A stretch of DNA of 64,000 nucleotides from a virus (lineage: Duplodnaviria > Heunggongvirae > Uroviricota > Caudoviricetes). The notes beneath the pieces were generated by a model. The model did not search any database and was not told the DNA's origin. It worked only from the letters and a program-made list of their open reading frames with translations. Shown one piece after another: positions 3,823-60,812 of this stretch (positions within the stretch are counted from its first letter, which is position 1; each line of letters begins with the position of its first letter). Location of the stretch: IMG/VR virus record IMGVR_UViG_3300021963_008171, positions 10,995 through 74,994 of that record. One strand, given 5' to 3'. Made by a program: the position numbers and the translations under genes.

Positions 3823-3847
3823 TTTTTTCCAATTTAATTGGAAAAAA
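3823..3847 (+). promoter_or_regulatory. perfect 12-nt inverted repeat abutting the start codon
   Basis: TTTTTTCCAATT (3823-3834), then T, then AATTGGAAAAAA (3836-3847). The last A is the A of ATG 3847. Confidence 0.4.
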
Positions 3848-4353
3848 TGACAAAGACACTTAAAATCCTATTTATAGCAATTTTTGCTATGGCATTTTCC
3901 TTTCAATCTTTCGGACAAGGAAAATCTGTTCTCATAGGGGAAATCACTAACAAAATTCAAATTGGAAATCTAGCAGGATCTAGGCCATTAACTTTTGGCT
4001 TTAGAAATCTATTGGAGGAATACCTTCAAGAAAACGATTTTGACATCGTAGAAGACGAGACTAAATTTGATTACAAGGTCAACATAGATCTTCTTTTCTT
4101 TGATGTTGAGACCACAAAGTCTAGCGTTGCAATATTCCACAAAAACAATGCAGAGACAGTACTAAAAATAAAGGCATATCTTTTAGATAATAAGGGGAAG
4201 AAAATAAAAGAATGTTTAATAACAGAAAAAGCTTCCGAGATTTCAACATCAACTTTAATAGTTGACGAGGGCGGAAAAATGAATCAACAATCGGTTTCTA
4301 CAGTTATTAAAAAGGTGTGCGGAACAGCAATAAAACAATTATTAACACAATGA
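3847..4353 (+). CDS. secreted short CsgG-like protein
   Basis: Signal peptide MTKTLKILFIAIFAMAFSFQSFGQ. The blocks FGFRNLLEEYLQENDFDIVE, DYKVNIDLLFFDVE and VLKIKAYLLDNKGKKIKE align by eye with CsgG-family blocks and with the paralog at 13503. Confidence 0.5.
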   Translation: MTKTLKILFIAIFAMAFSFQSFGQGKSVLIGEITNKIQIGNLAGSRPLTFGFRNLLEEYLQENDFDIVEDETKFDYKVNIDLLFFDVETTKSSVAIFHKNNAETVLKIKAYLLDNKGKKIKECLITEKASEISTSTLIVDEGGKMNQQSVSTVIKKVCGTAIKQLLTQ

Positions 4354-6005
4354 AAAAACTAATTTTATTATCAGTATTTTTTCTCCTGTTTGGATTCTCA
4401 GGATTTGCACAATTGACGATTAGTCAATCCCTAACACCTACCTCGGGTTTAAAGGTTGGTGACACGATTACAGTTAGATATAATTTAACGAAAGGAACAG
4501 TGATTAAGAATCCTCGTTATCTTTGGTTTAGATATCAGTTTAACAACAAAGCTCTGACTTATGTTTCAACTGCTTTCAATCAAGGATCATCTTCTCAAAC
4601 ATTCTATACAGGTTGGAGCAATTATAAGTTTACGCCAAACGGCGGAGCAAGTGACAATGATCTGGATGTCCAGTATGGTTTAACCCCTTGGAACTACGCA
4701 GTTAATTCTGATTGGAATGTTGGTCAATTAGCGGTTCAAAGAGCAGACCAATCTATTAATGGGTTAATCGCAACACAAAAGTACATTTTGAAGGATCAAA
4801 ATACCTACAACAATATCTTTAAAATAGATTTAGCATCAGGTACGGATACAACAGGTGCAAATGTTGGAACTATTTACGGCGGGGGTTGGTCTTCTATATC
4901 CGGTGTAACTGGTAACACTTCACAATTCAAGGTGAAAGTACTATTCCCTCAGGGATATGCAATCTCTGACCATAATGTTCAATTAATGAAATTAAAATCA
5001 GACGGTAGCGGAGATATCGATTGGTCACAACAGCCTATTGCTCAATTACCTCTAGATGCTACTGGAGAGGCTCTTTTCACAACGCAGGTTAAAGTTGGTG
5101 ATAGCGTTGGTGTGTTTGTATCACCAGCATCCCAAAAATCTTGGATGAATAATGTGATCACGGTTTCTGATGCTTATAAGGCATTTTTAGGACACACACA
5201 AACTGATATCGGCGGAACTGCAAACTTTTTCACTTATCCAGTTTTGGAGAAAAAGGTAGGAAATGTTACTAAAAACGATGCAACGTTTAACGAAGCGGAT
5301 TCTTATAATTTATTCGCTTATGTAATGGGACAAGACGTGTCAGCAAACGCATTCATTCCTACAAGCACTGTGACATCTTGGAGATGGTATAGCGGTTTAT
5401 TAAATCAAAGTTGGTTAGACGGAGTTATTAAGAATAGGGTATTAATTGATACACCTATCAAAGAGGTTTATGCTGTATATGCTTGGGGAGGTGATTTAAA
5501 CTGGTCTCACTCATCAGATCCTGCAGTGATTGCAAGTAGAATATCAGCTGGACAGTATACGAATTCTGTAAATTCAATTCAGACAAACTCTGTTAAATCA
5601 ATGAGTAGTGTTTCCATGGCTTACAGAACAGAAGCAGTTGAAACTGCTAAGCTAAGCGTAACATCAACTTTAGAAAATGGCAAGGTTATTTTAACAACAA
5701 CTTTAACTAAAGCAGAACTAGCAGGTTTACAAGTTGTTATGAACTATGACGAAAGCAAATTAACATTGGATAACGTGGTGTTCGATGCAGGTTCTACTAT
5801 AACGAACTTCTCAACCCACGATGGTGGTAGATTAACATTTGGTTCTATAGATCAATTAAAAACAGCAAGAATTAAAACTGGTACACCTTATAAATTAATC
5901 TTCACACCAAAGGTAGCATTATCAAACACTGCGGGATTATTCTACTTTGTACTATCAGACGCAGTTGACGGCAAAGGAAATAAAATCGACCTAATAGTTG
6001 AATAA
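4350..6005 (+). CDS. secreted protein with a C-terminal cohesin-like module
   Basis: ATG 4350 forms an ATGA overlap with the previous stop. Signal peptide MKKLILLSVFFLLFGFSGFAQ. The C-terminus LQVVMNYDESKLTLDNVVFDAGS...YKLIFTPK parallels the C-terminus of the next protein. Confidence 0.65.
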   Translation: MKKLILLSVFFLLFGFSGFAQLTISQSLTPTSGLKVGDTITVRYNLTKGTVIKNPRYLWFRYQFNNKALTYVSTAFNQGSSSQTFYTGWSNYKFTPNGGASDNDLDVQYGLTPWNYAVNSDWNVGQLAVQRADQSINGLIATQKYILKDQNTYNNIFKIDLASGTDTTGANVGTIYGGGWSSISGVTGNTSQFKVKVLFPQGYAISDHNVQLMKLKSDGSGDIDWSQQPIAQLPLDATGEALFTTQVKVGDSVGVFVSPASQKSWMNNVITVSDAYKAFLGHTQTDIGGTANFFTYPVLEKKVGNVTKNDATFNEADSYNLFAYVMGQDVSANAFIPTSTVTSWRWYSGLLNQSWLDGVIKNRVLIDTPIKEVYAVYAWGGDLNWSHSSDPAVIASRISAGQYTNSVNSIQTNSVKSMSSVSMAYRTEAVETAKLSVTSTLENGKVILTTTLTKAELAGLQVVMNYDESKLTLDNVVFDAGSTITNFSTHDGGRLTFGSIDQLKTARIKTGTPYKLIFTPKVALSNTAGLFYFVLSDAVDGKGNKIDLIVE

Positions 6006-6006
6006 T

Positions 6007-8301
6007 ATGAGATTTTTATTATTTATATTATTTTCTCTAATATCATTTTTAGGGTTCGGACAGAGTGTATCTGCTCCGGACTCTAAATCGTTTATACCAT
6101 CCACAACCGGCCAAGATGGGAGTGGATTCCAATTAAGTGGATTTAGTGCAACATCTACTTTATTAGCATCAATCAGTTTAATCAATCCATCAACAAATAC
6201 TACATTTTACCTTAACGATACACGAGGATTAATTGCCGCAAGTGGATTTACTTTAACGGGTAATAAAACTCGTTTAGTGGTATTGGGAACAATGTCAGAT
6301 ATTAATACTGCATTGGTATCTTTAAAAGTTAATACAGGTTCTGTAGTTGGTAATGTTCAATTATCGGTAGCGGCAACTGTAAACCCTGTTGGATTCTTTT
6401 ACAATGGAGTTAATGGACATTTTTACAAACCCATAACCGCAACCAATGAAAGAACTTCATACACACTTGCAAGAAGTAGGTCATTGCTAACTACATTCAA
6501 AGGACAGACAGGCTATTTGGTAACAATAACATCGGCTTCCGAAGATGCATTTATATTCGCAAATGTTCCTGCAACTAATGTATGGTTTGCTGCAACAGAT
6601 GAAATAAAAGATGGAACTTGGGTAATTGATGCTGGTCCTGAAAAAGGTACTGTGATGAAAACCTCAAATGGACAAACTAATGGAAACATTCCTGGCGTAT
6701 ATAACAACTGGGCACAAGGTGAACCAAATGGTAGTAATGGTAGTGAGAACTATGCAGTGGCAAAGTGGAATGGTGCTGCAAATTGGAACGATTTATCAAA
6801 CAATTGGAGTAATCCTTATGTAATTGAATACGGAACTTGGACTAACCCTGATGATGCAACATTTACTGAATTCTATACTAATAGTGTAACTCACTCAAAT
6901 GGGGAAGTATTGAGAGCAGCATTCAATGTTGATTTCGGAACTAATGTAGATGAAACAAAATTTTCAGCAAAAGCAAATACGTATGTAAATAATTTATGGG
7001 GTACAACAACTAACACATCAAGATCAATTAGTGGATTAGGTAAAGTAGATGTTACAAATGATTTGGATACTGTAAAGATTCAAAACGGAGGATACGTGGG
7101 TTCAATAGTAGGAGGGCAGGTAGAATGGTCTTATGTTAATTTTTATAACGGAGCAACCACACTTTACATTGACATGAGAAAGTTTGGTGCGATCGGTGCA
7201 AATTCTGTATCACACATTACACTCTTAGATGTATACAGTGGACCTGTTACCTTTTTAGGAAATGATGCAACCTGGGCAAGATATACGATACCCTCGACCC
7301 TTCCGAAAGTAACAAACGGAACGTCAACAAATTCACAATATATTCGCAACGCTGGATACGGAGATTATGCATTTATGTGTGAGATTTCATTTGAACTTAA
7401 TCGTGAATATAAACAACACGGAATAGAATTATCGTATACTAATCAAACAGATTTGAACACCCTGTATAATAGTATCGTTACTGTATCTGATGTGTTTATA
7501 GCATTTAAAGAATTATCAAATGGCGGGATATTTGGGGATCAAAGCGGATTGGAATTTACCAACGGTATTCAATTTATGAACGCAGATGTGGACGGTAATG
7601 GATTATTCAATGAATCCGACACGTATAAATTATTACAGCACCTAACTGGAGTTCAGCCATTAACACAAAATCCATTATTAACATTCTTGATGAAGCTTTA
7701 TAGCAAATCTGATTATGATGCAATTACAAAATCAAATTGGAACACAAGATTTAATTCTACGAGAAGTCTATTTCCATTTAGTTTAAATACGGGTACCCTT
7801 AATAACACATACAATGTGAACGTAACCTGGATAGGTGACGTAAACCTTTCTCATTCGGCACAACAAACTGCAAGCGGTGTTGCAACCAATTCATATAGAA
7901 GCATGAGCCTAATGACTAATACAACCACTAATGAAATAAATGCATCAATCATGGGTGAAAATGTTGGAGGTAAGGTTATAGTAACGATATCAGTAGACCC
8001 ATTACAGCAAGAATTAGTAGGAACCCAATTCCAGTTGAATTATGATAATACCTCGTTGGAATTTCAAAAAGTAGATTTTATAACAAAAGGTAATCCAACA
8101 AATTTTGGAACAGATAAAGGATCTTATATCACATTGGGATCATTAATCACTGATGGATCAACAATATTAGACAAAACAACAGAATATAAAATAACATTCG
8201 TACCAAAAATTGGATTAACTGGAACATTAGGGTTAACTTCTGTTTCAGCAACAGATGCTGTTAATAAAGCAGGAACTCAATTAAAAGTAAAATTAAACTA
8301 A
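6007..8301 (+). CDS. secreted multidomain protein: C-type lectin, dockerin-like EF-hand repeat and cohesin-like C-terminus
   Basis: Signal peptide MRFLLFILFSLISFLGFGQ. C-type lectin signature GHFY...YLVTITSASEDAFI...WFAATD...WAQGEPNGSNGSENYAV...WNDLS...YVIEYG. Dockerin-like MNADVDGNGLFNESDTYKLLQHLTG. C-terminus FQLNYDNTSLEFQKVDF...YKITFVPK. Confidence 0.75.
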   Translation: MRFLLFILFSLISFLGFGQSVSAPDSKSFIPSTTGQDGSGFQLSGFSATSTLLASISLINPSTNTTFYLNDTRGLIAASGFTLTGNKTRLVVLGTMSDINTALVSLKVNTGSVVGNVQLSVAATVNPVGFFYNGVNGHFYKPITATNERTSYTLARSRSLLTTFKGQTGYLVTITSASEDAFIFANVPATNVWFAATDEIKDGTWVIDAGPEKGTVMKTSNGQTNGNIPGVYNNWAQGEPNGSNGSENYAVAKWNGAANWNDLSNNWSNPYVIEYGTWTNPDDATFTEFYTNSVTHSNGEVLRAAFNVDFGTNVDETKFSAKANTYVNNLWGTTTNTSRSISGLGKVDVTNDLDTVKIQNGGYVGSIVGGQVEWSYVNFYNGATTLYIDMRKFGAIGANSVSHITLLDVYSGPVTFLGNDATWARYTIPSTLPKVTNGTSTNSQYIRNAGYGDYAFMCEISFELNREYKQHGIELSYTNQTDLNTLYNSIVTVSDVFIAFKELSNGGIFGDQSGLEFTNGIQFMNADVDGNGLFNESDTYKLLQHLTGVQPLTQNPLLTFLMKLYSKSDYDAITKSNWNTRFNSTRSLFPFSLNTGTLNNTYNVNVTWIGDVNLSHSAQQTASGVATNSYRSMSLMTNTTTNEINASIMGENVGGKVIVTISVDPLQQELVGTQFQLNYDNTSLEFQKVDFITKGNPTNFGTDKGSYITLGSLITDGSTILDKTTEYKITFVPKIGLTGTLGLTSVSATDAVNKAGTQLKVKLN

Positions 8302-9194
8302 TGAAAAGGATAACAATCATATTAATCTTACTTTTCATAGGGGTTTATTCTAAAGCACAAATTGTAAAACCTGATACGTTACAGCTTTCACCTAAAGAAT
8401 TGTTTGGTGAGAGTGATGATTGGAATGATATAGGTATATTACAATCCTATATTGATTTTTCAAAAGACGTTCTTTCATCCTCAAATCTATCTGTTGGTAT
8501 AATCGGAAAACAGGTGTCAAGTACTTTAAATCTGGGATACAGTAAATGGTCTAATAATGGAGTATGGGGACACTCATTTTCCACATCAATAAATCCGATA
8601 TGGAATTATTATGGTGTTGGTTATGGATTTAGTAGAAATACTGATAAGAGAACAACAACATTACAAACATTCTATTCAACTGATTTTGATTTTCAAAAAG
8701 ATATCAGTATTTCATTTATAGATGTTTTCAGGACAAAAAAGTTTGGGACATTTGGGTATAGCTTAATTGCATCAAAAACATTTTGGGGAACATATGAAGG
8801 AGCATGGGAAGGAAAATACACAGTTGATGCGAATGGTAATTTTTTGGATTTGATTTACCCACAAATGCCGGCATCATCCGAAATGATTTATAAAGGAATG
8901 TTAATGTACACATATACAATCAAAACAAAGAGAGTTAATATATCCCCACAAATATTTGCTATGAGCGACATCTATAAAGATTTTAAGGATGGTACCTCTT
9001 CGGATTTAGCATATCTTGATGATTTCAATTTGGATTTATATTATGGTACATCATTCGATTGGAAAATAACTAAAAGATTTGTTTTAAACACTAATATTAG
9101 ATTCAACAAAACGTGGGATAAATTAAGCGAGTCTGTTGGATATAAAAAAAGTAATCCAATAATGTTTATGATAGGAACAAACTTTCAATTTTAA
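8301..9194 (+). CDS. outer-membrane beta-barrel-like protein (paralogous to the C-terminus of 10224..11669)
   Basis: Signal peptide MKRITIILILLFIGVYSKAQ. Alternating aromatic/Gly-rich strands with a terminal ...MIGTNFQF. Shared blocks: ISPQIFAMS/IAPQVFVTS and GTSFDWKITKRFVLNTNIRFN/GFSYDYKLTGRFGLNLNYRFS. Confidence 0.6.
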   Translation: MKRITIILILLFIGVYSKAQIVKPDTLQLSPKELFGESDDWNDIGILQSYIDFSKDVLSSSNLSVGIIGKQVSSTLNLGYSKWSNNGVWGHSFSTSINPIWNYYGVGYGFSRNTDKRTTTLQTFYSTDFDFQKDISISFIDVFRTKKFGTFGYSLIASKTFWGTYEGAWEGKYTVDANGNFLDLIYPQMPASSEMIYKGMLMYTYTIKTKRVNISPQIFAMSDIYKDFKDGTSSDLAYLDDFNLDLYYGTSFDWKITKRFVLNTNIRFNKTWDKLSESVGYKKSNPIMFMIGTNFQF

Positions 9195-9197
9195 AAG

Positions 9198-9455
9198 ATG
9201 AAAAAAATATTAATTATATCATTTTTATTCTTAACAATATCATCTTGTACTAGTTACAAGATTAGGGTAATACAGTATGATGGAACTGGATATTCGTTGT
9301 ATTTGCCAATGAAAAAACACGGATTGGATAAATGGTACGATGATAACATTGTGTACTATTCTGAAGAGATGGCAAGGTTTAAAATTAAAAAATGGAAGAG
9401 TGAGGAATATCATTCGGATCCGTGGAAAAAACCAAAATACATTAAAATAAATTAA
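9198..9455 (+). CDS. small lipoprotein
   Basis: MKKILIISFLFLTISSC contains a lipobox Cys. 85 codons. Confidence 0.6.
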   Translation: MKKILIISFLFLTISSCTSYKIRVIQYDGTGYSLYLPMKKHGLDKWYDDNIVYYSEEMARFKIKKWKSEEYHSDPWKKPKYIKIN

Positions 9456-9799
9456 TGAAAAAGATATTATTCATATTTCTGATTTTACTGTATGGATGTA
9501 CTAAACCGGAGTTACCAACACCGGCACCGCCAGTCGAAAAAATATTTGATGTTGGGGAGAGTAGTGTTACCAATGGACAATCTTTGTATTTTGATTTACC
9601 ATCACCTGGAGTTTATATTTTATCCTTAATTGATAAAGAGACAAACCAAGTAATAAGCAGAGAAAAATTCGTGGGTCAGATTGGGGAGAATTCAAGAAAG
9701 ATCTATACCAATTCTATAAAATCACAAACGCTATATCTATTGTTGTCAGATTCTTCTAAAAACGAGATGAAAAGAACAACTATATTAATAAGAAAATAA
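9455..9799 (+). CDS. small lipoprotein, beta-sandwich-like (T9SS-CTD-like pattern)
   Basis: MKKILFIFLILLYGC lipobox. The stretch GQSLYFDLPSPGVYILSLIDKETNQVIS...LYLLL resembles the Por-secretion-tail / Ig-like pattern. Confidence 0.55.
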   Translation: MKKILFIFLILLYGCTKPELPTPAPPVEKIFDVGESSVTNGQSLYFDLPSPGVYILSLIDKETNQVISREKFVGQIGENSRKIYTNSIKSQTLYLLLSDSSKNEMKRTTILIRK

Positions 9800-9810
9800 A
9801 ATAAAAAGAA

Positions 9811-10185
9811 ATGAAAAAATCACTAATCTTCTCAATCTGCGTTATTCTATTTGCAGGATGTACAAAAGACGACATGCTAATTCCTATGCAGGAACAAATT
9901 AAACCAGAGCTTGCTATTCAAAACAGCGTGGGTATTAAATTAGAAACCCCATTTGTTTCCAAGGAAGTTTCAATGAACGTAAAATTGGAAAAGGAAGGTA
10001 CTGTAGTTATTAAAATAACTGACATATCAAATAGAGTTGTATCTAAGGAACAGGTTAATGTAAAGGCTGGAGATAATCTATTGAAAGTTTATACCTCTGC
10101 TTTACCATCTTCTTCATATAGAATTGGTATCTACGACTCTAGTAACAATCTTCTAGGAATAACAGACTTTAATAAGATAAACTAA
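9811..10185 (+). CDS. small lipoprotein, beta-sandwich-like (T9SS-CTD-like pattern)
   Basis: MKKSLIFSICVILFAGC lipobox. The stretch VVIKITDISNRVVSKEQVNVKAGDNLLKVYTSALPSSSYRIGIYD matches the xIxIxDxxGRxV...G.N...L..G.Y pattern. Confidence 0.55.
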   Translation: MKKSLIFSICVILFAGCTKDDMLIPMQEQIKPELAIQNSVGIKLETPFVSKEVSMNVKLEKEGTVVIKITDISNRVVSKEQVNVKAGDNLLKVYTSALPSSSYRIGIYDSSNNLLGITDFNKIN

Positions 10186-10223
10186 AAGATTATCTTAAAA
10201 TATTTGAGGCGGAGAAAAATTGA

Positions 10224-11669
10224 ATGAAGAAATTATTATTGTTCCTTTTATTGGTAGTAGCATCCTTTGCTGCTAGTGCACAGACCTTCACCCAGACCTA
10301 TGTGGATAAATGTACTGGGGAGCTCAAAGTTGTGGTGTCTGCTCCTATGCCCAATGGTGGAGTAATGATTTCTTTTTATAATCAAATGAAGATATTCACG
10401 AATGCGCAGGTCAATGACGGAACGGTTCAAAAATGGCTGAATCAAGTTTATACTGATTATAATACAAGACCTTGTCCAGTAAGTACTGTTGCTGTACAAA
10501 CAGTTCAACAAACTGTTGCACAAGCGGCATCAGCTGCTGCATCTGCTGCAGCTTCTTCCGCAGCAAGTAATGCAGCTTCATCTGCAGCTAGTTCTTCGGC
10601 ATCAGCTGCTGCTTCATCGTCTGCAAGTAGCGCTGCAAGTTCTTCTGCATCATCTTCTGCTAGTGCTTCTGCTGGTTCATCCGCGGGTGCTTCTGCTGGT
10701 TCATCAGGAGGTCCTTCTTCTCAAAGCTCAGGCGGATCTTCAGGTTCATCTAGCTCTAACGGGGAAAGTAAAAGTAGTGGATCATCATCAGGAGAATCAA
10801 AATCTGAAAGTAAAGCTGAATCAAAATCTGAAAGTAAATCAGAATCAAAATCCGAAAGTAAAAGTGAGGAGAAGAAAGAGGAAAGCAAATCTGAGAGTAA
10901 AAAAGAGGAGAAGAAAGAGGAGAATAAAAAAGAAGAAGAGAAGAAAAAAGAGGAGGAGAAAAAGAAAGAAGAGGAAAAGAAGAAGAAAGAAGAGGAAAAG
11001 AAGAAGAAACAATCCGTTAGTAATCCCACACTAGTTGCTTCCGATCTTGCAGTAACACAAGGAAATGACGGTAGATATTCTGCTATGATATCAACAGGTA
11101 TAAGCAAATCTTCCATGACGGGAACGGAAAGTTGGGGATTAACATCCATGATATGGACAACATTTGATCAATTTGCTTTGAATGGCGGATACACTAAAAT
11201 GAATTTCGAAAAAGGCAAATTAAAGAACATAGATTCATATTCTATGACATTAGCATACCTTCAGGGAAATATCATGATTATGCAGGGTTATACGCACATT
11301 AAACCGGATCCTAAGATAGGTACTTATGGATTTAACGTAGGAGTTGTTAGCTTATTATTAAAGGATGGAAATAAGTATACCTATTCTGCTTCTTTTTCGT
11401 CCATCGGATTTTGGACAAAGATTTATCAGGTAAATAAAAAAACATCAATAGCTCCTCAGGTTTTCGTAACAAGCTCCCCGATATCATGGAATCCAAACAC
11501 CAATCAAACCTTGGTAAACAGACATTACGGATATATGACAGGGTTTTCGTATGACTACAAATTAACTGGAAGATTCGGGCTTAATCTAAATTATAGATTT
11601 TCTGGATCAACCCAAGCGGGAACACCGATATTGCATAATTTTATGATAGGATCGAGGATTATGCTGTAG
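10224..11669 (+). CDS. secreted protein: N-terminal domain, long Ser/Ala to Ser/Gly to Ser/Glu/Lys to Glu/Lys low-complexity linker, and C-terminal beta-barrel-like domain
   Basis: Signal peptide MKKLLLFLLLVVASFAASAQ. The linker spans roughly 160 residues. The C-terminal ~200 aa are paralogous to 8301..9194 and end ...FMIGSRIML. Confidence 0.65.
   Translation: MKKLLLFLLLVVASFAASAQTFTQTYVDKCTGELKVVVSAPMPNGGVMISFYNQMKIFTNAQVNDGTVQKWLNQVYTDYNTRPCPVSTVAVQTVQQTVAQAASAAASAAASSAASNAASSAASSSASAAASSSASSAASSSASSSASASAGSSAGASAGSSGGPSSQSSGGSSGSSSSNGESKSSGSSSGESKSESKAESKSESKSESKSESKSEEKKEESKSESKKEEKKEENKKEEEKKKEEEKKKEEEKKKKEEEKKKKQSVSNPTLVASDLAVTQGNDGRYSAMISTGISKSSMTGTESWGLTSMIWTTFDQFALNGGYTKMNFEKGKLKNIDSYSMTLAYLQGNIMIMQGYTHIKPDPKIGTYGFNVGVVSLLLKDGNKYTYSASFSSIGFWTKIYQVNKKTSIAPQVFVTSSPISWNPNTNQTLVNRHYGYMTGFSYDYKLTGRFGLNLNYRFSGSTQAGTPILHNFMIGSRIML
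10523..11010 (+). repeat. coding low-complexity tract including a 3 x 24-nt tandem repeat (10794-10865)
   Basis: GAATCAAAATCTGAAAGTAAAGCT, GAATCAAAATCTGAAAGTAAATCA and GAATCAAAATCCGAAAGTAAAAGT encode ESKSESK(A/S). GCN/TCN runs lie upstream and GAA/GAG/AAA/AAG runs downstream. Confidence 0.85.
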
Positions 11670-11675
11670 AAAAAA

Positions 11676-11707
11676 GATATATAAAGTTGAAAAAATCCTC
11701 ATTCCGT
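11676..11707 (+). promoter_or_regulatory. leader box copy 2: GATATATAAAGTTGAAAAAATCCTCATTCCGT
   Basis: Matches 3680-3710 except for one substitution and one inserted T. It begins 7 nt after the stop of 10224..11669 and heads a 168-nt leader before ATG 11844. Confidence 0.5.
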
Positions 11708-11843
11708 TAGCAAGAAATCTACATTTCTTCGTACGTCTTTTCAAAACTAGCTGGCTTATTGCCGGAAACCTGTATGAAAGGCGGGTCTCAACTTTGAGTA
11801 TTTTTTCTAGGTATTAAAAAAAACCGAATATAAAATAAACAAA

Positions 11844-12158
11844 ATGAGCGAAGAAACAGAAAACGACGGAACCTGGTCAGGTTTAAAAAAGACAATCGTA
11901 GGAGTACTTGGTACAGTAGTAACTGCAGGTGGAGTATTTTTAACTACACTATTAGGAGGCGGAGATAAAGACGAAGCCCCAGCACCAGCAGCCCCAGTAA
12001 TTAACATCACAAACTCAAATCAACAGCAACAAGCAGCAGGAAAAACCGTGATTATTCAGGGTGGCAACAATGGCGGAACAGGCAAACCAGCAGCTCCAGC
12101 TCCAGCACCTAAGAAGAAAGAAGGTGATGAGTTTAAAGAGGAAGCACCAAAATGGTAA
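11844..12158 (+). CDS. single-pass membrane protein with Pro/Ala-rich segments
   Basis: TM helix IVGVLGTVVTAGGVFLTTLLGGG, then APAPAAP ... KPAAPAPAPKKK. Confidence 0.55.
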   Translation: MSEETENDGTWSGLKKTIVGVLGTVVTAGGVFLTTLLGGGDKDEAPAPAAPVINITNSNQQQQAAGKTVIIQGGNNGGTGKPAAPAPAPKKKEGDEFKEEAPKW

Positions 12159-12334
12159 ATATGGAACAAGGGCTAAGTTTCATAGCAGTAGTTGCAGTAT
12201 GTTCAATAGCTATGTTTGTATTTAATTCACCAATAATGTTTTTAACATCTTTTATAATTGGATGTAGCTACTTGGTATTAAGAGGGAGAAAAAAGGGGTG
12301 GAGATTACCCAAAGATATAAAAAATACACATTAA
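12152..12334 (+). CDS. small two-helix membrane protein
   Basis: LSFIAVVAVCSIAMFVF and IMFLTSFIIGCSYLVL. The start is either ATG 12152 or ATG 12161. Confidence 0.45.
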   Translation: MVNMEQGLSFIAVVAVCSIAMFVFNSPIMFLTSFIIGCSYLVLRGRKKGWRLPKDIKNTH

Positions 12335-12348
12335 TAGAATAAATTAAA

Positions 12349-12918
12349 ATGGCAGAAAAAAATCAACAACCAAGTGGATTTAAAGACCTATTAAACTCGA
12401 TGATGACCCGCAGATGGTACATCACCGCATTAGTGTTAGGCGGATTTATGCTAATACTAGCAGGAATGTTTGCAGCTATAGGAATAGGAACCAAAATGGC
12501 AGGAGAATGGAAAGAGCTTCTTCTTTTATTATTAGGGGCTTTTATTGGCTCTTATGGTAAGATTATAGACTACTGGTTCTCAGATACCGACAAAGACAAG
12601 ATGCTAGTTCAGAAGATGGACGAAGAAGATGGAACTACTTTATCTCATACTAATGACATGAAGGAAACTAACAAGCCATACGCACCAACTATCCCTGATG
12701 CATTTGTTGCAGGAGCACAAGCTGCTAGAGAATTAGCAGTGGTTGAAAATCAGCAAAATTTTGAATTGGCTAAGGATCAACAAGAGCACGAGCAGGAAAT
12801 GGAAAAGCTTGAATATGAATCTCATAGACAATGCGAGCATGAATGGGGTGATTCCGATAATGATGGAGAACTTGAATGTCAAAAATGCGGATTGTTAAAA
12901 GACAATTTCGAGGGTTAA
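12349..12918 (+). CDS. membrane protein with an acidic/coiled C-terminal domain containing a CxxC pair
   Basis: Two hydrophobic helices (WYITALVLGGFMLILAGMFAAIGIG and LLLLLLGAFIGSYG). The C-terminus reads ...HRQCEHEWGDSDNDGELECQKCG. Confidence 0.55.
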   Translation: MAEKNQQPSGFKDLLNSMMTRRWYITALVLGGFMLILAGMFAAIGIGTKMAGEWKELLLLLLGAFIGSYGKIIDYWFSDTDKDKMLVQKMDEEDGTTLSHTNDMKETNKPYAPTIPDAFVAGAQAARELAVVENQQNFELAKDQQEHEQEMEKLEYESHRQCEHEWGDSDNDGELECQKCGLLKDNFEG

Positions 12919-12942
12919 TCCCAAACAATATAAAATAATAAC

Positions 12943-13197
12943 ATGACTTTTAAAGAATGGATCATAGATCTTTTTAAAGACGAAAGAGGAGCAATTTCAG
13001 TAAAACCTGTGATTGCATTTGTTGGATCATTATTCCTTTGCGGAACGATGTTAGCTAACTCTTTCAGTGAAGAGCATTTTAAACCAGCAGCAGAATTGGT
13101 GAATGCAGTAATGGTAATAACAGCAATCGGTATGGGCGCTGATACATTAGATAAATTCACTAAGAAAGCACCTGCGGACAAGCAAGAAGAAGCTTAA
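12943..13197 (+). CDS. small two-helix membrane protein (holin-like size and topology; unproven)
   Basis: Helices VIAFVGSLFLCGTMLANSF and LVNAVMVITAIGMGA with a charged C-terminus. A hairpin follows at 13204-13225. Confidence 0.5.
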   Translation: MTFKEWIIDLFKDERGAISVKPVIAFVGSLFLCGTMLANSFSEEHFKPAAELVNAVMVITAIGMGADTLDKFTKKAPADKQEEA

Positions 13198-13203
13198 AGT
13201 TGA

Positions 13204-13225
13204 GGAACGGGTTAATCCCCGTTCC
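13204..13225 (+). terminator. terminator-like hairpin
   Basis: GGAACGGG, loop ttaatc, CCCGTTCC: a perfect 8-bp stem 7 nt after the stop. The downstream tract is only weakly T-rich. Confidence 0.4.
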
Positions 13226-13258
13226 CTTCAAATACAAATAAAACACGACTAAACCCCC

Positions 13259-13492
13259 ATGAAAAATCAATTAACAAAAGCAAGTGAATTTCTATTTCAC
13301 GTATACCTAAGACTTTGTCTGTGCTGGGTATTTTTTGCACTAGGAATACAGGTATTCTTTGTGTATTTACAAGTTAGCGATCAACAAGAAAGAATGCGTC
13401 AATATTCAAACGAATTCGAATGGAAATTTGACGGAAGATTTAAAAACAATCCAGAAAACATTATGTACGAAGGACCGACATCTGAAAAATAA
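13259..13492 (+). CDS. small membrane protein
   Basis: Hydrophobic segment FLFHVYLRLCLCWVFFALGIQVFFVYL. 77 codons. Confidence 0.45.
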   Translation: MKNQLTKASEFLFHVYLRLCLCWVFFALGIQVFFVYLQVSDQQERMRQYSNEFEWKFDGRFKNNPENIMYEGPTSEK

Positions 13493-13502
13493 TTAGGAAA
13501 GA

Positions 13503-14240
13503 ATGAAAAAGCAAATATACAACATCTCAATACTGGTCATCGTTTTTATGATTGGTTTTGTTCTGACTACAAAAGCTCAGACTATAGGTAAAACGAAAAC
13601 TGAAGATTTTAAAGCGGACTTCGAAAAGAAGAAGGATATTTCAGCATATCTTGATTACGAGGGTCCAAAGAAAAATATTCAATTGTTAAAGTGCGGAATC
13701 AATGATGAAACGTACGAGGCATATCCAGAATTAAAAGAAAAAAGAGTAGGACTTGGTGTTACTAACATCGTATTAGAATATCTTGATAACCTAAATAGAT
13801 TCGAATTCACTGAGGATAAAACCGAGATTAAAAACAGAATGGTGAAGCAATTCCAAGCATCACAATCTGGAATTTCTGAAAACAAATTAGACGGTAGAGG
13901 AAAGATAAAGCTAGCACACTATTTTGTTGAAATTGAAGTCTATGATTATTCAGTATCTGAAGACGAGTCAATTAGTCTAAAGGATGGCATCAAAGATAAT
14001 CTTGTAACAAGATTGGGTCTTCAGGTTAGATTTACTAATGCAGAGACTGGAGCAATAATAGCAGCATCTGGATTAGGTGAGGCTAAAACAACTAGGGAAT
14101 TAACTCTTGTTGCTGATGCTTCTGTTGACCCTATTAAATTCAATCAATCTACAATTAGTATTTCAACCAAAAAAGCATTGGATATAGCATGTGCAAACAT
14201 TCTAGATAAGATGATTAGAAAGGGAGTATTCCCTCAATAA
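13503..14240 (+). CDS. CsgG-family-like secretion/assembly protein
   Basis: Signal peptide MKKQIYNISILVIVFMIGFVLTTKAQ. The blocks GVTNIVLEYLDNLNRFEFTE, LAHYFVEIEVYDYS and LGLQVRFTNAETGAIIAASGLGEAKT align by eye with E. coli CsgG blocks (ATAMLVTALKDSRWF, ANIMVEGSIIGYES, IAVNLRVVNVSTGEILSSVNTSKT). Confidence 0.65.
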   Translation: MKKQIYNISILVIVFMIGFVLTTKAQTIGKTKTEDFKADFEKKKDISAYLDYEGPKKNIQLLKCGINDETYEAYPELKEKRVGLGVTNIVLEYLDNLNRFEFTEDKTEIKNRMVKQFQASQSGISENKLDGRGKIKLAHYFVEIEVYDYSVSEDESISLKDGIKDNLVTRLGLQVRFTNAETGAIIAASGLGEAKTTRELTLVADASVDPIKFNQSTISISTKKALDIACANILDKMIRKGVFPQ

Positions 14241-14293
14241 ATTTAGGTATAGCTTAAAACACTATGCTTTAGTTACACGACCTAAAGTATAAA

Positions 14294-14941
14294 ATGAACT
14301 TAAAACACGACAATTCCTCACTTAACACCATAGTAGTGGTGTTCTTTCTAGCAATCTCACAACTATTCTACAGCTGTAAGAATAACAGTTCCCCTAGGAA
14401 AGTATCCGATAAAGATAAAGCATCAATAAGTAAAGGATTGTCAGATACAACATTTATTCACGACACCGTGTATGTGGATAATTTAATTCCGTTCGAAGTT
14501 TTAAGGGACACCATAATTTATAGAGATGTCCCGGCTATCGTTGACACTGCTGCGATATTGGGAATGTATAATGTTAAAAAAGTTAAAATCGATACACTCA
14601 AGCTTGATTATGGCTATATCACAGTGGTTGATACTGTTTCTGGAGGTAATATCCTATCTAGAAAATATTTCTCTAAGATTAAGGTACCTGTTAAAGAGAG
14701 GATCGAAAAGATAAAAGAAGAACCTAGGGGTAATCTGTATTTAGGCCTGAATGGGGGTTTAGATAAACCTAACTATGTTTACTCCCTGGGGACTTCTTTT
14801 CTCTATAAAACACCTAAGGATAAAATTTACGAACTTGGTATAGGGGTTTGGAATATGACATCTAATGGAATAGATGGCCAATTCATTCCGTATGTAAAAG
14901 GAGGGGTTTACTGGAAGGTTAACCTCAAAGGGAAGAAATAA
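14294..14941 (+). CDS. lipoprotein with a beta-rich C-terminal domain
   Basis: TIVVVFFLAISQLFYSC lipobox-like signal. The C-terminus is Gly/aromatic-rich (GNLYLGLNGGLDKPNYVYSLGTSFLYK...GGVYWKVNL). Confidence 0.55.
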   Translation: MNLKHDNSSLNTIVVVFFLAISQLFYSCKNNSSPRKVSDKDKASISKGLSDTTFIHDTVYVDNLIPFEVLRDTIIYRDVPAIVDTAAILGMYNVKKVKIDTLKLDYGYITVVDTVSGGNILSRKYFSKIKVPVKERIEKIKEEPRGNLYLGLNGGLDKPNYVYSLGTSFLYKTPKDKIYELGIGVWNMTSNGIDGQFIPYVKGGVYWKVNLKGKK

Positions 14942-26844: not shown

Positions 26845-28470
26845 ATGAGCAAGTTATCAGAGTACGCGGTTAAGTCCAAAACAGAAATTAGAAAATACGA
26901 GGATCTAGTTGTTGAGAATTTTATGGGGGGTAATTCCTATAAATTGTCACCGCTACAAACACTTAAAATAGTAGCTGCTAGCTCGATCTTCGGGGAGCCA
27001 CAGTACTATAGAGATGGGATAAAGAAGCAGGCTTCGATAAAGAACCATGATACCCTATTGAAATACTCAATATTTGCTGGCCTTATAGAAGGCTGTACCT
27101 CCGCAGCGGACGTTTTTACGAACGCTATTGATGCAGCCTTAGATTATGACTTCAAGGGAACTTTAGACTTAGCTACGGAGCTAAGAATGGTGTTTTTTAT
27201 GAGATTAAACCCAGCCGTCATATTTATACGTGCTTCTATCCATCCAAAAAGAGCAGAATTCAATGGATCCAACCCAGGATACATGAAAACTGTGGGCAAA
27301 TCCATAGCACTTAGACCCGATGATTTAACAAATCAGCTTGAATATTTCATGTACGTGAACAAGACAAAAAGCAAATTAAGCTCCATTGTTAAAAGAACCT
27401 GGGCAGAAAGACTTGGAGAGTATTCAAGATATCAACTAAACAAATACAAAGGCAAAAGTCTAATTGATCTTGTTAGAATTTCACACGCTTGGAATAATGA
27501 TATAGATGAGCTAATGAAGACCGGATCTATCAAGGTTGAAGAATCTGAAAGAACATGGGAAAATTTAAGGTCGGAGGGCAAGACATGGAAGGAGATTCTA
27601 GAAGCAATCGAAATCCCTCACATGGCTCTTTTGAGAAATCTGAGGGGAATCTTCAAAGAAATAGAGGATTTGGAGATTGCTAAATCCGTCATGACAAAAT
27701 TATCGGCTGGTGTTACTAAGGGAAATCAATTTCCATTTAGATATTGGTCTGCATATAAAGCGGTAGAGAAAGAAGAAATAAATCATAAAGGAGTCATTCT
27801 TGATGGATTAGAGGAGTGCATGGACATTTCAGTACTGAATATGCCAAAGCTTGATGGAAAAACTATATGTCTTTCCGATAATTCAGGATCTGCCTGGGGT
27901 CAGTTATCATCAGAATATGGAACGGTTTATGCAGCAGAGATAGCAAATCTTTCTTCACTGATTACTGGAAAACAATCCGACGAAGGCGAAATAGGTTTAT
28001 TCGGAGATCGCCTTATTGTAGAGTCAGTTTCTAAAAGAAATGGACTTCTATCTCAGTTAAAAGCTATCAATGAGGTGGAGAGAGATCATGGTAAATTGGG
28101 GGGAGGCACAGAGAATGGGATTTGGTTGTTCTTCGATGATGCAATCAAGAGTAAAAAACATTACGATAACATTTTTATCTATTCTGATATGCAAGCTGGA
28201 CATGGTGGGTTATATGGAACAGATTCTTCAGAATATAAAGATTTCTTACATGGAGATTGGAGGCATATAGATGTTCTAGCTCTTGTTTCTAAATATAGGA
28301 AAGACGTGAATCCCAAGGTGAATCTATTTTCCGTTCAAGTTGCTGGATATGACAATACAGTATTGCCGGAGAATCTTTATAGGGGAGCTATTTTAGCAGG
28401 ATGGACGGGTAAAGAGCCAGTTTTTGCTAAGGCGTTAATCGACACCTGGAACGAAATAGAAAATCGATAA
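26845..28470 (+). CDS. rsr: Ro60-like TROVE-domain protein with a C-terminal vWA domain
   Basis: By-eye matches to human Ro60: NKYKGKSLIDLVRISHAWN vs YKQRNGWSHKDLLRLSH; IPHMALLRNLRGI vs MPLTALLRNLGKM; NQFPFRY vs RIHPFHI. The vWA MIDAS-like motif is ICLSDNSGSAWG. Confidence 0.85.
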   Translation: MSKLSEYAVKSKTEIRKYEDLVVENFMGGNSYKLSPLQTLKIVAASSIFGEPQYYRDGIKKQASIKNHDTLLKYSIFAGLIEGCTSAADVFTNAIDAALDYDFKGTLDLATELRMVFFMRLNPAVIFIRASIHPKRAEFNGSNPGYMKTVGKSIALRPDDLTNQLEYFMYVNKTKSKLSSIVKRTWAERLGEYSRYQLNKYKGKSLIDLVRISHAWNNDIDELMKTGSIKVEESERTWENLRSEGKTWKEILEAIEIPHMALLRNLRGIFKEIEDLEIAKSVMTKLSAGVTKGNQFPFRYWSAYKAVEKEEINHKGVILDGLEECMDISVLNMPKLDGKTICLSDNSGSAWGQLSSEYGTVYAAEIANLSSLITGKQSDEGEIGLFGDRLIVESVSKRNGLLSQLKAINEVERDHGKLGGGTENGIWLFFDDAIKSKKHYDNIFIYSDMQAGHGGLYGTDSSEYKDFLHGDWRHIDVLALVSKYRKDVNPKVNLFSVQVAGYDNTVLPENLYRGAILAGWTGKEPVFAKALIDTWNEIENR

Positions 28471-41694: not shown

Positions 41695-42918
41695 ATGGTT
41701 TGGAATTACCAAGATACAGTGCTAGTTCATGTGGAACTTTCCAATCTTTGCAATGCTGCTTGTCCCCTTTGCCCAAGATATGTAAACAATTCGTTAAGGG
41801 TCAATCCAGAATTGGACTTGGGCAGCGTTTCTTTTGAGGATTTTAAAAAATGGTTCCCTCTAGAATTTGTACAAAAAAGTAAAGGATGGATATTCTGCGG
41901 TACTAATGGCGACCCCATGATGGCTAGAGACGTGTATGAGATATTAGAATATGTTCTCAGAAATTCGACTGCTAAGGTCCAGGTCAACACTAACGGTTCC
42001 ATAAGAGACGGGGAATTTTGGGAAAAAATAGGATCTTTATTTGCCGAGCCCTGTGAAAATAGCAGATATGTTGTTTTCTCTGTTGATGGACTGGAGGACA
42101 CGAACCACATCTACAGAAGAAACGTGAAATGGGAGAGGGTGATGGAAAATATGAGAGCCTATGCAAAATCAGGATCTACTGGTATTTGGGACTTTCTAAT
42201 ATTCAAGCACAATGAGCATCAGCTAGAGGAGGCTGAGCTTCTCTGCAAAGAAATAGGTCTAGCATTTTCTCCAAAAAGACCCTTTGGGTTTGAAACGGGA
42301 AATCCTGATGAATACCAGGACTTAATGGTTTATGACATGGAAGGAAATTTTTTATACAAGATAGAGCCGGCCAGCGAGGAGTGGAGATTAAATAGATCCA
42401 TGAATAAATTTGAGAGAGGAGAGGAAAAAATATGGATTCCGGGAAAGGGGAAAAGAACAGATGATGAAATCAAAGAAAAGTGGAATGGACTGATCGAGAG
42501 GGATCTTCCTAAATATAAATTCCCGGAAAGATTCAAAGAAAAATCAGTTAGTTGCAAATCTTGCCATCCTATCGGGAAGGAAATTTATGTTGATTGTAAG
42601 GGAAATGTTATGCCTTGCTGCTTTGTTGGAACAATGTACAACAGTGACTTTCAACACCACGAGGCATTACAGATAAAAAAACATTTATGGGACTGGGGAT
42701 TGGATAAAATAAATCTGAATAATCATTCTCTCAAAGATATACTAGATAGCAAATATCTAGATGAGGTTTTTGCCAACCGCTGGGAAGGAGCTAAGGATGA
42801 GGATAAAATGGGATATTGCTTTAACACATGCTCGGTTGATCACATGAAAGATCTTTTTGTCAGAAAGGAAAATCTACCAATTTCTTCAGAAAAATCAGGC
42901 AAAAAAAGTCTTATCTAG
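41695..42918 (+). CDS. radical SAM enzyme with a Cys-rich (SPASM/twitch-like) C-terminal region
   Basis: CxxxCxxC in LSNLCNAACPLCPRY. The C-terminal region has CKSCHP...CKGNVMPCCF...CFNTC. Confidence 0.75.
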   Translation: MVWNYQDTVLVHVELSNLCNAACPLCPRYVNNSLRVNPELDLGSVSFEDFKKWFPLEFVQKSKGWIFCGTNGDPMMARDVYEILEYVLRNSTAKVQVNTNGSIRDGEFWEKIGSLFAEPCENSRYVVFSVDGLEDTNHIYRRNVKWERVMENMRAYAKSGSTGIWDFLIFKHNEHQLEEAELLCKEIGLAFSPKRPFGFETGNPDEYQDLMVYDMEGNFLYKIEPASEEWRLNRSMNKFERGEEKIWIPGKGKRTDDEIKEKWNGLIERDLPKYKFPERFKEKSVSCKSCHPIGKEIYVDCKGNVMPCCFVGTMYNSDFQHHEALQIKKHLWDWGLDKINLNNHSLKDILDSKYLDEVFANRWEGAKDEDKMGYCFNTCSVDHMKDLFVRKENLPISSEKSGKKSLI

Positions 42919-42933
42919 GGACATTTTTTGGGC

Positions 42934-42944
42934 GATATATAAAA
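42934..42944 (+). promoter_or_regulatory. GATATATAAAA motif
   Basis: Ends 1 nt before ATG 42946. Confidence 0.35.
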
Positions 42945-42945
42945 T

Positions 42946-47105: not shown

Positions 47106-48076
47106 TAAACAAGAATTCAAGAATTTTAATTACCGGTGGATCTGGATTGGTTGGACAAAATTTAACTGAAAGACTAGTCAGAGAGGGATATACAGATTTA
47201 AGAGTAAATCTTCATAGAAGAGGAGTTAGAAAGGTTCATGACGGTGTTAATTACACATATCATGATCTACAAACATACGAAGGGTGTAAAATCGCAACAG
47301 TGGACGTTGATGTTGTTTTTCATGCCGCTGCTTCAACCTCAAATGCAGTTGATACTGTAGTAGATCCTTTAGCACACGTTACACCAAATGTTGCTATGAA
47401 TAATTTTCTTATAGATGCAGCTTGGAGGAATAATGTACAGCACTATATTTTCATTTCTTCCAATACCGTTTATCCACCAAAGGGTGATGAGCCTGTGGTA
47501 GAAACAGATTTTCTATTTGATGAACCTTATCCAGTATATTTTCCAGTTGGCTGGATGAAAAGATACGCAGAGGTTCAGTGCGAACTTTACGGAAAATATC
47601 TCCCAAGAAAGATGAAATCAACTGTGATAAGACCAGCCAATTTGTTTGGTCCTCATGATAAGTACGATTTCAATAAATGTCACGTTACCCCAGCAACAAT
47701 AAGAAAGGTAGCAGACAAAATGAACCCGATTCCTGTTTGGGGTGACGGATCGGAATTAAGGGATCTCCTTTTCGTAGAAGATTTTGTAGAAGCTCTACAG
47801 ACGGTAATGGAAAAAGAAACTGAAATGTTCGAGGTGTATAATGTTGGATCTAATAAAGTATATTCAGTTCTTGATGTTCTTGAGAAGATGAAAAAGATTG
47901 CAGACTATGATGCACCGACAGAGTTCATTAGTGGAAAGCCTTCTATGATACCAACTAGAAAAATAGATTCTAATAAAATCAAAGAAAAATTAGGATGGGA
48001 GGCAAAAACCCCCCTAGAAGATGGATTGGCTATAGCTTATAATTGGTATCTTGAGAATAATAAAGAATTCAAATAA
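47102..48076 (+). CDS. GDP-L-fucose synthase (Fcl/GMER)-like NAD(P)-dependent epimerase/reductase
   Basis: [14 protein letters not shown]. By-eye matches to E. coli Fcl: [26 protein letters not shown] vs [64 protein letters not shown] vs GWYHEISLEAGLASTYQWFLEN. Confidence 0.75.
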   Translation: [324 protein letters not shown]

Positions 48077-48077
48077 T

Positions 48078-50421: not shown

Positions 50422-50429
50422 AGTCTAAA

Positions 50430-55234: not shown

Positions 55235-55430
55235 TCAAATTATCGTTTTCTTCTACGAATTTAGTGTGGAATTCAGACAGATAGAATTGGATTCGGTTGC
55301 TCCATTCGTTTTTGTCTATCTCCTCTACCCAAGCTGTTAGGTCTTCCATACAGTTTGCAATCTTTTCTAATGCTTTAACCTTTCTGATTTCCAGGTCTTG
55401 TGGATTTTCTGTTTTTTTAGATACTGACAT
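55227..55430 (-). CDS. hypothetical small acidic protein
   Basis: 67-codon ATG ORF with an 8-nt overlap onto the downstream gene. Confidence 0.45.
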   Translation of the reverse strand: MSVSKKTENPQDLEIRKVKALEKIANCMEDLTAWVEEIDKNEWSNRIQFYLSEFHTKFVEENDNLNE

Positions 55431-55441
55431 GATTTCTGTTT

Positions 55442-60725: not shown

Positions 60726-60737
60726 CAAATTTTATAT

Positions 60738-60812
<75 letters not shown>

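Follow-up and report, generated by a model that had tools for sequence, protein, structure and literature searches.

Can the order in which residues follow one another along a low-complexity chain be a conserved property of a protein, and what might such an order serve? This question is raised by one gene in a 64,000-nucleotide stretch, here called the window, of the Caudoviricetes record IMGVR_UViG_3300021963_008171 (positions 10,995 to 74,994). The gene encodes a protein of 481 amino acids (aa), the graded-tether barrel protein, in which a signal peptide is followed by a head with two cysteines, a low-complexity linker of 164 aa (aa 99-262) and a C-terminal region of 219 aa that ends in the beta-signal-like ...HNFMIGSRIML (Table 1). 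A first-pass annotation made from the letters alone had noticed that the linker passes stepwise from uncharged residues to a mixture of Glu and Lys, and had likened the layout to a mini-autotransporter with a spacer or brush as passenger. As judged from aligned relatives, the conserved property is that charge density, usually acidic, increases along the linker towards the barrel, with a short basic patch at the end. The E/K linker of the window is one realisation of this rise.

The charge gradient in the window and in its relatives

From Cys84 to the barrel junction, the charged fraction of the linker is 0, 0, 0.44 and 0.83 in successive quartiles. The charged state of the residues follows their position over aa 99-262 with a Spearman rho of 0.77, a value reached by none of 20,000 shuffles (highest, 0.29), and the ordered shift that had been read by eye is therefore present. 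Mean relative positions in the linker are 0.17 for Ala, 0.39 for Ser, 0.43 for Gly, 0.79 for Glu and 0.82 for Lys. Most of the linker is made up of tandem arrays with units of 12 and 24 nucleotides (nt), as found by Tandem Repeats Finder. The array of three 24-nt copies that had been noticed at 10794-10865 was recovered at 10793-10862, starting one base away, with period 24, 2.9 copies and 91% matches. The same low-complexity DNA yields two spurious open reading frames (ORFs), at 10489-11034 on the plus strand and 10721-11149 on the minus strand. O-glycosylation of the stalk was also considered, through the D-S/T-hydrophobic motif that we take to be the general one in Bacteroidota, and was rejected: the linker of the window has no Asp and the motif is absent.

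Relatives were collected by two scans of IMG/VR. The first found 219 viral contigs with a relative, 80 of which were retrieved, and the second, which started from the head domain of distant members, added 58, giving a family total of 277 viral contigs of up to 317 kilobases (kb). A HMMER search of 1.84 billion representatives gave 138 family members, and the barrel was C-terminal in the full-length matches. The orthologous ORF is intact, in one frame and 410-517 aa long, in more than 60 loci of the first IMG/VR set. The gradient was then counted in 96 distinct linkers out of about 150 related sequences. They are 65-401 aa long (median 152); the charged fraction does not decrease from one quartile to the next in 91 of the 96, and in 92 the final 12 residues ahead of the barrel include at least three Lys or Arg. 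In its second half the linker is net negative or near neutral, never above +3 and down to -94 in distant clades, one of which has linkers that finish in runs such as EEEEEEEEDEEEEEKDEEEDEEEEEEKKKKF and reach that extreme. With intact frames and a gradient in nearly all members, the linker is not the hypervariable, frameshifted junk that the first-pass annotation had set against its own reading. Compared across related genomes, as it had proposed, the linkers gain and lose repeat units and keep their polarity. Close relatives can be aligned gap-free over the head, the barrel and the last ~21 E/K residues, and the remainder of the linker varies through insertions and deletions, mostly of 4, 8 or 12 residues.

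The residues that build the gradient change from clade to clade. The linker of protein P0142 runs from Ala-rich through Thr/Ser and Thr/Glu to Glu, that of P0230 from Gln/Ala through Thr/Ser to Glu/Thr/Lys, and that of P0246 from a Pro-rich part through Glu to EKK. In orthologues the position of zone 2 is often taken by poly-Pro or Thr. The orthologues at loci L001 (510 aa, with an extra poly-Pro block), L004 (506 aa) and L002 (broken only by a scaffold gap) all keep this layout and zone order. The exceptions are P0157 and P0160, whose long Asn/Ser/Gly linkers have almost no gradient, and P0140, which is nearly without a linker. Because charge rises in nearly all relatives, even in those with different amino acids, the gradient looks selected and not accidental.

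It might be argued that the gradient is only the functionless footprint of repeat growth (AASS to SASS, SGSS, ESKS and EEKK) and that nothing but a long hydrophilic spacer is selected. The 12-nt and 24-nt arrays, the indels in multiples of four residues, the highly variable length and the hardly graded linkers of P0157 and P0160 would all agree with this. However, polarity and Lys cap persist in 91-92 of the 96 distinct linkers, over barrel identities down to ~25%, and are built from different residues in each clade, such that common descent of one array does not account for the polarity. Among close relatives, moreover, the terminal E/K segment is near-invariant while the rest gains and loses units. 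We consider this explanation rather improbable.

In public gene calls the protein is mostly reduced to barrel-only fragments beginning at internal Met codons (P0001-P0013 are such fragments). At L001 a false gene was called across the low-complexity DNA (9319-9993, minus strand) and the real gene was cut back to its barrel. One further protein, P0014 (380 aa, from a 1.8-kb metagenome contig), joins the family barrel and a short E/K linker to an unrelated N-terminal region without a signal peptide; either a domain swap or an error of assembly or gene calling could account for it. A full-text search of the literature for conserved gradients of composition or charge in linkers of this kind returned nothing, which is weak evidence of absence.

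The E/K end of the linker as a predicted helix

AlphaFold, run on a shallow alignment, predicts aa 223-263 as one helix with a predicted local distance difference test score (pLDDT) of 85-93. The helix stops ~10 residues short of the first predicted strand (aa 274). In the wider E/K part (aa 213-262), the charged fraction is 0.9 and the net charge per residue +0.06; aa 223-262 alone contain 16 E(i)-K(i+3) and 11 E(i)-K(i+4) pairs. Designed AEEEXXX repeats form stable single alpha-helices (SAHs) (PMC5347031), and SAH domains serve as spacers or constant-force springs (PMC4183817). The predicted E/K segment has both the repeat type and the dense opposite-charge pairs at i/i+3 and i/i+4 that characterize an SAH, which is a monomeric helix lacking a hydrophobic seam. 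On the strength of the model, the E/K end is probably a stiff single alpha-helix and not a disordered stretch. The graded stretch of ~160 residues that had been described thus exists, but its end, taken as a disordered EK polyampholyte, is predicted to be helical. Zone 1 has a weak helix prediction as well (aa 88-126).

Like the SAHs of myosins, INCENP and CAF-1, the phage stalk has an E3K3/E3K4 repeat, many Glu-Lys pairs and a confident lone predicted helix. It differs from them in that the helix is confined to the final step of a graded stalk, and in that sister clades replace it with non-helical acidic Gly/Ser/Asp/Glu or poly-Glu segments. Since the helix can be exchanged in this way, the conserved property would be charge density and not helicity.

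The barrel and its paralogues

The C-terminal ~200 aa of the graded-tether protein had been reported to share ordered blocks with the 297-aa product of an upstream gene. A direct BLASTP comparison of the two (8301-9191 against 10224-11666) gave E=0.009 with 26% identity over 156 columns. When family profiles of both proteins were aligned by hhalign, the probability was 94.9% and E=4.8e-8 over 205 columns; the match ran to both C-termini, taking in residues 55-295 of the 297-aa protein and, in the 481-aa protein, all of the C-terminal domain. This bears out the paralogy: by profile comparison the homology of the two barrels is real but distant, and the genes are paralogues. The C-terminal region of the 481-aa protein has 14 database homologues with 47-89% identity. 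The 297-aa protein has 835, and among the matches listed (120) all exceed 80% identity; its gene is an accessory one, occurring in only 14 of 143 related loci.

The C-terminal domain of the 481-aa protein models as a barrel, in agreement with the first-pass annotation. As in outer-membrane beta-barrels in general, there is a signal peptide, a predicted antiparallel all-beta barrel and a C-terminal beta-signal with a hydrophobic or aromatic end; divergent members of the family end in ...IGSKLVF, ...IGSRFSF or similar, which is the classical beta-signal with terminal Phe. From its homology and its ...MIGTNFQF terminus, the 297-aa protein is presumably a barrel too. Pfam, NCBIfam and PHROG scans with both barrels, the head, the conserved neighbour s245 (see below) and other neighbours assigned none of them to a family. 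Eleven family members searched against Pfam at E <= 10 matched no outer-membrane protein family except for one DUF5777 match (E 0.056). Profile searches of the PDB produced nothing but E/K low-complexity noise in the case of the barrel family, and no match for the 297-aa family. Structure matches in BFVD were all weak (E >= 1.6e-3) and included an 'OmpC porin' and an 'outer membrane protein' from uncultured Caudovirales and Aeromonas phage phiAS5.

Barrel-only paralogues are also found in other loci. At L004 the same gene block contains two of them (9228-10001 and 13970-14791; 257 and 273 aa). These two and P0256, P0269 and P0270 have a short poly-Pro or Gln-rich N-terminal extension, and they keep basic residues and an NPxL..SDL-type junction ahead of the barrel.

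It is conceivable that the protein is a phage porin or channel, with head and stalk as a 'ball and chain' or as a cleaved, chaperone-like pro-region, and that the barrel-only paralogues are its constitutive version. Porin-like barrels do occur in viral protein sets, as the weak BFVD matches show, and the paralogues share the block. However, gating would not require a chain of 65-401 aa with conserved polarity, there is no evident protease site or processing motif, and the head is conserved as strongly as the barrel. A porin or channel of this kind seems very unlikely to us.

The head domain and its export

Gln20, Cys30, Gly66, Trp71 and Cys84 are invariant in 17 diverse full-length members, and likewise in a 26-member alignment of the head alone. 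By this alignment evidence the N-terminal region is a real domain, as had been proposed, with a size of ~78 aa after a 19-aa signal peptide and not ~90 aa. The head has no Pfam match (26 members) and no PDB sequence match, and these searches gave no SLH, OmpA-like or other peptidoglycan-binding signature. A homologue search of the protein database with the head returned one fragment only, since gene calls there are broken. The AlphaFold model of the head, built from an alignment of two sequences, has a pLDDT below 50; its fold cannot be reliably deduced from such a model and the predicted helices were discarded.

In Bacteroidota, Gln is commonly first after cleavage by signal peptidase I, the so-called Q-rule (PMC5837995). 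The graded-tether family conforms to it, with Gln20 invariant after the predicted cleavage. The passenger had been viewed as an entropic spacer or brush. It is more than that: it carries a conserved two-Cys head at its far end, and the low-complexity part would therefore be a tether for this head.

The gene block

The graded-tether gene lies in a block of ~15 genes (3838-14941), every product of which has a signal peptide, a lipobox or a membrane segment (Table 1). All its genes are on the same strand, and their order is conserved across 143 viral loci, as found by tblastn of the window neighbours. It looks like a dedicated module for remodelling the host envelope. A lysis or spanin cassette was considered and rejected, there being no endolysin or holin families adjoining the block.

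Table 1. Features of the graded-tether barrel gene and of the surrounding block (positions in the window).
Feature	Position	Strand	Basis or remark
o171	3838-4353	+	signal peptide; order conserved
o562 (562 aa), large secreted protein	4317-6005	+	signal peptide; order conserved
o767 (767 aa), large secreted protein	5998-8301	+	signal peptide; order conserved
Barrel-only paralogue, 297 aa (barrel by homology)	8301..9194	+	signal peptide 8301-8357; homologous barrel ~8463-9191; ends ...MIGTNFQF
Small predicted lipoproteins	9198-9455, 9455-9799, 9811-10185	+	lipoboxes in translations; second and third conserved
Graded-tether barrel gene, 481 aa and stop	10224..11669	+	single ORF
Sec signal peptide, aa 1-19	10224..10280	+	read from sequence; predicted cleavage ASA/Q exposes Gln20
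N-terminal head domain, aa 20-98	10281..10517	+	invariant Cys30, Cys84, Gly66, Trp71 in family alignments
Linker zone 1, aa 99-148, Ala/Ser tetrapeptide-type repeats, uncharged	10518..10667	+	composition, repeats
Linker zone 2, aa 149-180, Ser/Gly-rich, uncharged, predicted coil	10668..10763	+	sequence, AlphaFold
Linker zone 3, aa 181-222, (E-S-K-S)n grading into EEKK	10764..10889	+	holds the 24-nt tandem repeat
Linker zone 4, aa 223-262, E3K3/E3K4 repeats ending KKKK	10890..11009	+	predicted single alpha-helix and Lys cap
C-terminal outer-membrane beta-barrel domain (predicted), aa 263-481	11010..11666	+	starts with conserved NPxLxxSDL junction
Small membrane proteins	11844-12158, 12152-12334, 12349-12918, 12943-13197, 13259-13492	+	
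s245, 245 aa, signal peptide	13503..14240	+	tblastn, 139/143 related loci
s215	14294-14941	+	block member

The most conserved neighbour is s245, with 45-96% identity among the loci that have it. It mostly lies directly upstream of the graded-tether gene; in the window, unlike most loci, it sits ~1.8 kb downstream. Because it is present in 139 of 143 loci and mostly adjoins the graded-tether gene, the two are probably coupled in function, as far as gene order can tell. It has no Pfam or PDB match. A guess from its sequence pattern that it is CsgG-like was abandoned, as hhalign of a 12-member profile against E. coli CsgG gave a probability of 0.4%.

Among the large secreted proteins, o767 and o562 share a C-terminal domain of ~100 aa. 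A C-type-lectin-like region and a dockerin-like DVDGNG calcium loop were read by eye in o767, and its L001 orthologue has a PA14 match and a weak Cohesin match. Neither protein matched a C-terminal-domain model of the type IX secretion system (T9SS) in Pfam or NCBIfam, even at E <= 1. The lipoprotein at 9811-10185 begins CTKDD past its lipobox, and orthologues partly keep the motif (CTKND, CTKEQD, CTKNI). The motif fits K-(D/E)2, the surface-export signal of Bacteroidota lipoproteins (PMC5080379). The 104-aa membrane protein at 11844-12158 is directly downstream of the graded-tether gene in the window and in L001, L007, L008 and L014. In L001 an apparent homing endonuclease, an ORF of 230 aa (11057-11749) with Cys/His-rich repeats and a GIY-YIG-like motif at its N-terminus (IFYIGIGKNENRAY), is inserted between the orthologues of 11844-12158 and 12349-12918.

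Viral origin, host and distribution

The window is AT-rich (~35% G+C) and has many small ORFs without a family match. Its matches to PHROG and Pfam are of the kind usual in accessory regions of large phages and include 2-oxoglutarate (2OG) oxygenases, nucleotide-sugar epimerases, radical S-adenosylmethionine (SAM) proteins, glycosyltransferases and a DNA polymerase exonuclease subunit. Related contigs add a T4-type RNA ligase, thymidylate synthase, thioredoxin, a UvrD-like helicase and a ClpB-like ATPase, and contigs bearing the family are up to 244-317 kb long. Scans of 185,579 bacterial and archaeal genomes, one per species, with two different pattern sets gave no relative, and neither did blastn or tblastn in 50,697 GenBank phage records. 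We conclude that the graded-tether gene belongs to uncultivated large phages that probably infect Bacteroidota. We infer this host because the Gln after the signal peptide fits the Q-rule and the neighbours carry lipoboxes.

Several other features of the window were noted. A dense cluster for sugar and radical SAM chemistry at 41695-57011 contains four radical SAM proteins, a GT2-like protein, two NAD-dependent epimerase/dehydratases, one of them fused to a 2OG-Fe(II) oxygenase, and two eukaryote-type GT7 (beta-1,4-galactosyltransferase-like) proteins, one of them fused to Laminin_G_3. A 541-aa protein (26845-28470) matches PHROG 850 'RNA-binding protein' (E 5e-42), and a 305-aa SPFH/Band 7 protein (59334-60251) matches Pfam at E 1.8e-21 and PHROG 200 'lipoprotein'. 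A full-length transfer-messenger RNA (80 bits) lies at 60314-60728, followed ten bases on by a tRNA-Met (60738-60812). A scan for promoters and terminators is uninformative for this type of organism.

On which side of the outer membrane is the head?

We suggest, with a probability of roughly 0.4, that the head is displayed on the surface of the infected cell by a threading process like that of autotransporters. In this scheme, host Sec would remove the 19-aa signal peptide, and the beta-barrel assembly machinery (BAM) of the host would insert the C-terminal domain of ~215 aa into the outer membrane as a barrel of ~12 strands, which would be the anchor. The membrane-proximal 40 residues of the stalk would form the stiff E/K helix, with a Lys patch at the barrel junction; the middle would be an expanded charged chain of Ser, Glu and Lys, and the distal part a flexible, uncharged leash of Ala, Ser and Gly. 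During BAM-assisted assembly the stalk may thread through or alongside its own barrel from the C- to the N-terminal side, the direction of export in type Va autotransporters, with the most charged or acidic part leaving first and the Lys cap staying at the periplasmic mouth. The graded spacer would then stand off the anionic lipopolysaccharide, and the head would be kept off the anionic membrane surface yet be able to explore space. There it could act with the other exported products of the block (lectin/PA14/cohesin-like proteins, lipoproteins and barrel-only paralogues) in remodelling the host surface.

Surface display is favoured because the order of signal peptide, exported part, predicted helix and small barrel is that of type Va autotransporters, and because in this family the part expected to come out first carries the most charge or is the most acidic. 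The variation in length, the Pro/Thr/Ser inserts, the lectin/PA14/cohesin-like neighbours and the CTKDD lipoprotein also point to the surface. In a disordered autotransporter passenger, acidic residues were critical for secretion, and natural passengers are mostly acidic, according to a statement in PMC4174580 that cites Kang'ethe and Bernstein (2013). Of the mini-autotransporter layout that the first-pass annotation had proposed, the order of signal peptide, N-terminal part, predicted helix and predicted ~12-strand barrel holds, but a match to an autotransporter beta-domain family is missing.

Several observations weigh against surface display by a phage protein. The whole protein has no match to the autotransporter beta-domain (PF03797) or to another outer-membrane protein family in Pfam at E <= 0.1. 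In the AlphaFold models, which were made from shallow alignments, confidence is low both in the strand count (12 or 13 elements) and in the initial 40 residues of the barrel domain. The existence of barrel-only paralogues (297, 257 and 273 aa) implies that the barrel family is not primarily a translocator. The stalk in the clade of the window is charge-neutral (net charge per residue +0.01) and not acidic. The two invariant Cys of the head, 54 residues apart, would hinder threading if they were oxidised in the periplasm. The N-terminal extension of an outer-membrane barrel is periplasmic by default, and to our knowledge type V secretion is rare in Bacteroidota. Moreover, the window has no phage structural hallmark gene, capsid and terminase included, and its viral origin rests on its membership of IMG/VR and on its gene content.

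Alternatively, the barrel could anchor a stalk and head that stay in the periplasm, where the head would bind peptidoglycan or an inner-membrane partner and form a bridge across the envelope. Such a partner might be the single-pass protein at 11844-12158, which has a Pro/Ala-rich periplasmic tail, and the layout would be like that of OmpM-type porins, with their small N-terminal domain, stalk and barrel, or like a spanin or TonB-like connection. This arrangement is a serious possibility, though a tentative one. It has the default topology of N-terminal barrel extensions on its side, and the conserved Cys pair suits an oxidising periplasm. The block encodes several small inner-membrane proteins, of which that at 11844-12158 keeps its place directly downstream in five loci including the window; the short Pro-rich N-terminal extensions of the barrel-only paralogues and the analogy with OmpM-type attachment porins agree with it too. 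However, a stalk that ranges over 65-401 aa, and by tens of residues between close relatives, is a poor ruler for a fixed gap. Charges down to -94 and Pro/Thr/Ser-rich segments generally resemble extracellular linkers, the head is without an SLH, OmpA-like or other peptidoglycan-binding signature in the Pfam and PDB searches, and no lysis genes were found adjoining the block.

A stronger form of surface display is that the graded stalk is itself an export ratchet independent of adenosine triphosphate, self-contained, whose most acidic or charged, barrel-proximal segment is expelled first through a small phage-encoded barrel and whose Lys cap acts as a stop. This would make the family a new phage-borne, type-V-like display class in Bacteroidota, which we regard as unlikely. 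If it were true, the order of compositions along a disordered chain would carry the mechanism, and not composition alone.

Comparison with known systems and significance

The closest analogues of the graded-tether protein are type Va autotransporters, of which it would be a miniature, and OmpM-like tethers, but it is not demonstrably a member of either group. Type Va autotransporters (EspP, Hbp, NalP, AIDA-I) differ from it in having a barrel of ~250-300 aa, compared to ~215 aa, and a beta-helix passenger in place of a low-complexity stalk with a 78-aa head; the phage protein has no match to their beta-domain in Pfam and comes from phages of a phylum in which type V secretion is uncommon. In OmpM/Slp porins (Veillonella OmpM1, PDB 8bym) the stalk is a trimeric coiled coil, whereas the phage protein has a presumably monomeric low-complexity chain of very variable length with a predicted single helix, a smaller barrel and no SLH domain (Pfam scan of 26 heads). 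TonB and TolA likewise have a long, low-complexity, charge-patterned segment that spans a compartment, the periplasm, beside a membrane anchor. However, this anchor lies in the inner membrane, charge along the segment is uniform or comes in blocks (Glu-Pro and then Lys-Pro) and does not pass from neutral to charged, and the sequences showed no relation.

Lambda Lom-type barrels and phage porins are also phage-encoded beta-barrels that the host inserts into its own outer membrane. There is no significant similarity to them (best BFVD E 1.6e-3; no tblastn match in the 50,697 GenBank phage records), and we know of none with a head on a graded stalk. The PorP/SprF barrels of Bacteroidota, encoded beside large type-B C-terminal-domain adhesins, resemble the ~300-aa barrel gene at 8301-9194 in its setting, since it overlaps and directly follows the large secreted adhesin-like gene at 5998-8301 in surroundings of a Bacteroidota type. 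However, neither barrel matched PF11751 in Pfam (E <= 0.1) or the T9SS PorP family in NCBIfam (E <= 1), and with neither C-terminal-domain nor PorP/SprF matches a link to T9SS was rejected. Phage-encoded outer-membrane barrels are already known; the present one is a new, virus-restricted family, distinguished by a conserved charge-graded tether and a novel head.

The finding matters for annotation because gene callers split the graded-tether gene and leave mostly barrel fragments in public sets, such that the architecture is visible only from the DNA. For the phages, a conserved block of ~10-15 genes for exported proteins suggests that the host envelope is systematically remodelled during infection. 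Low-complexity linkers are usually described by their overall composition or charge patterning. With its dozens of variants in length and chemistry, this family offers a natural test case of whether selection acts on the very order in which the zones of a low-complexity chain follow one another.

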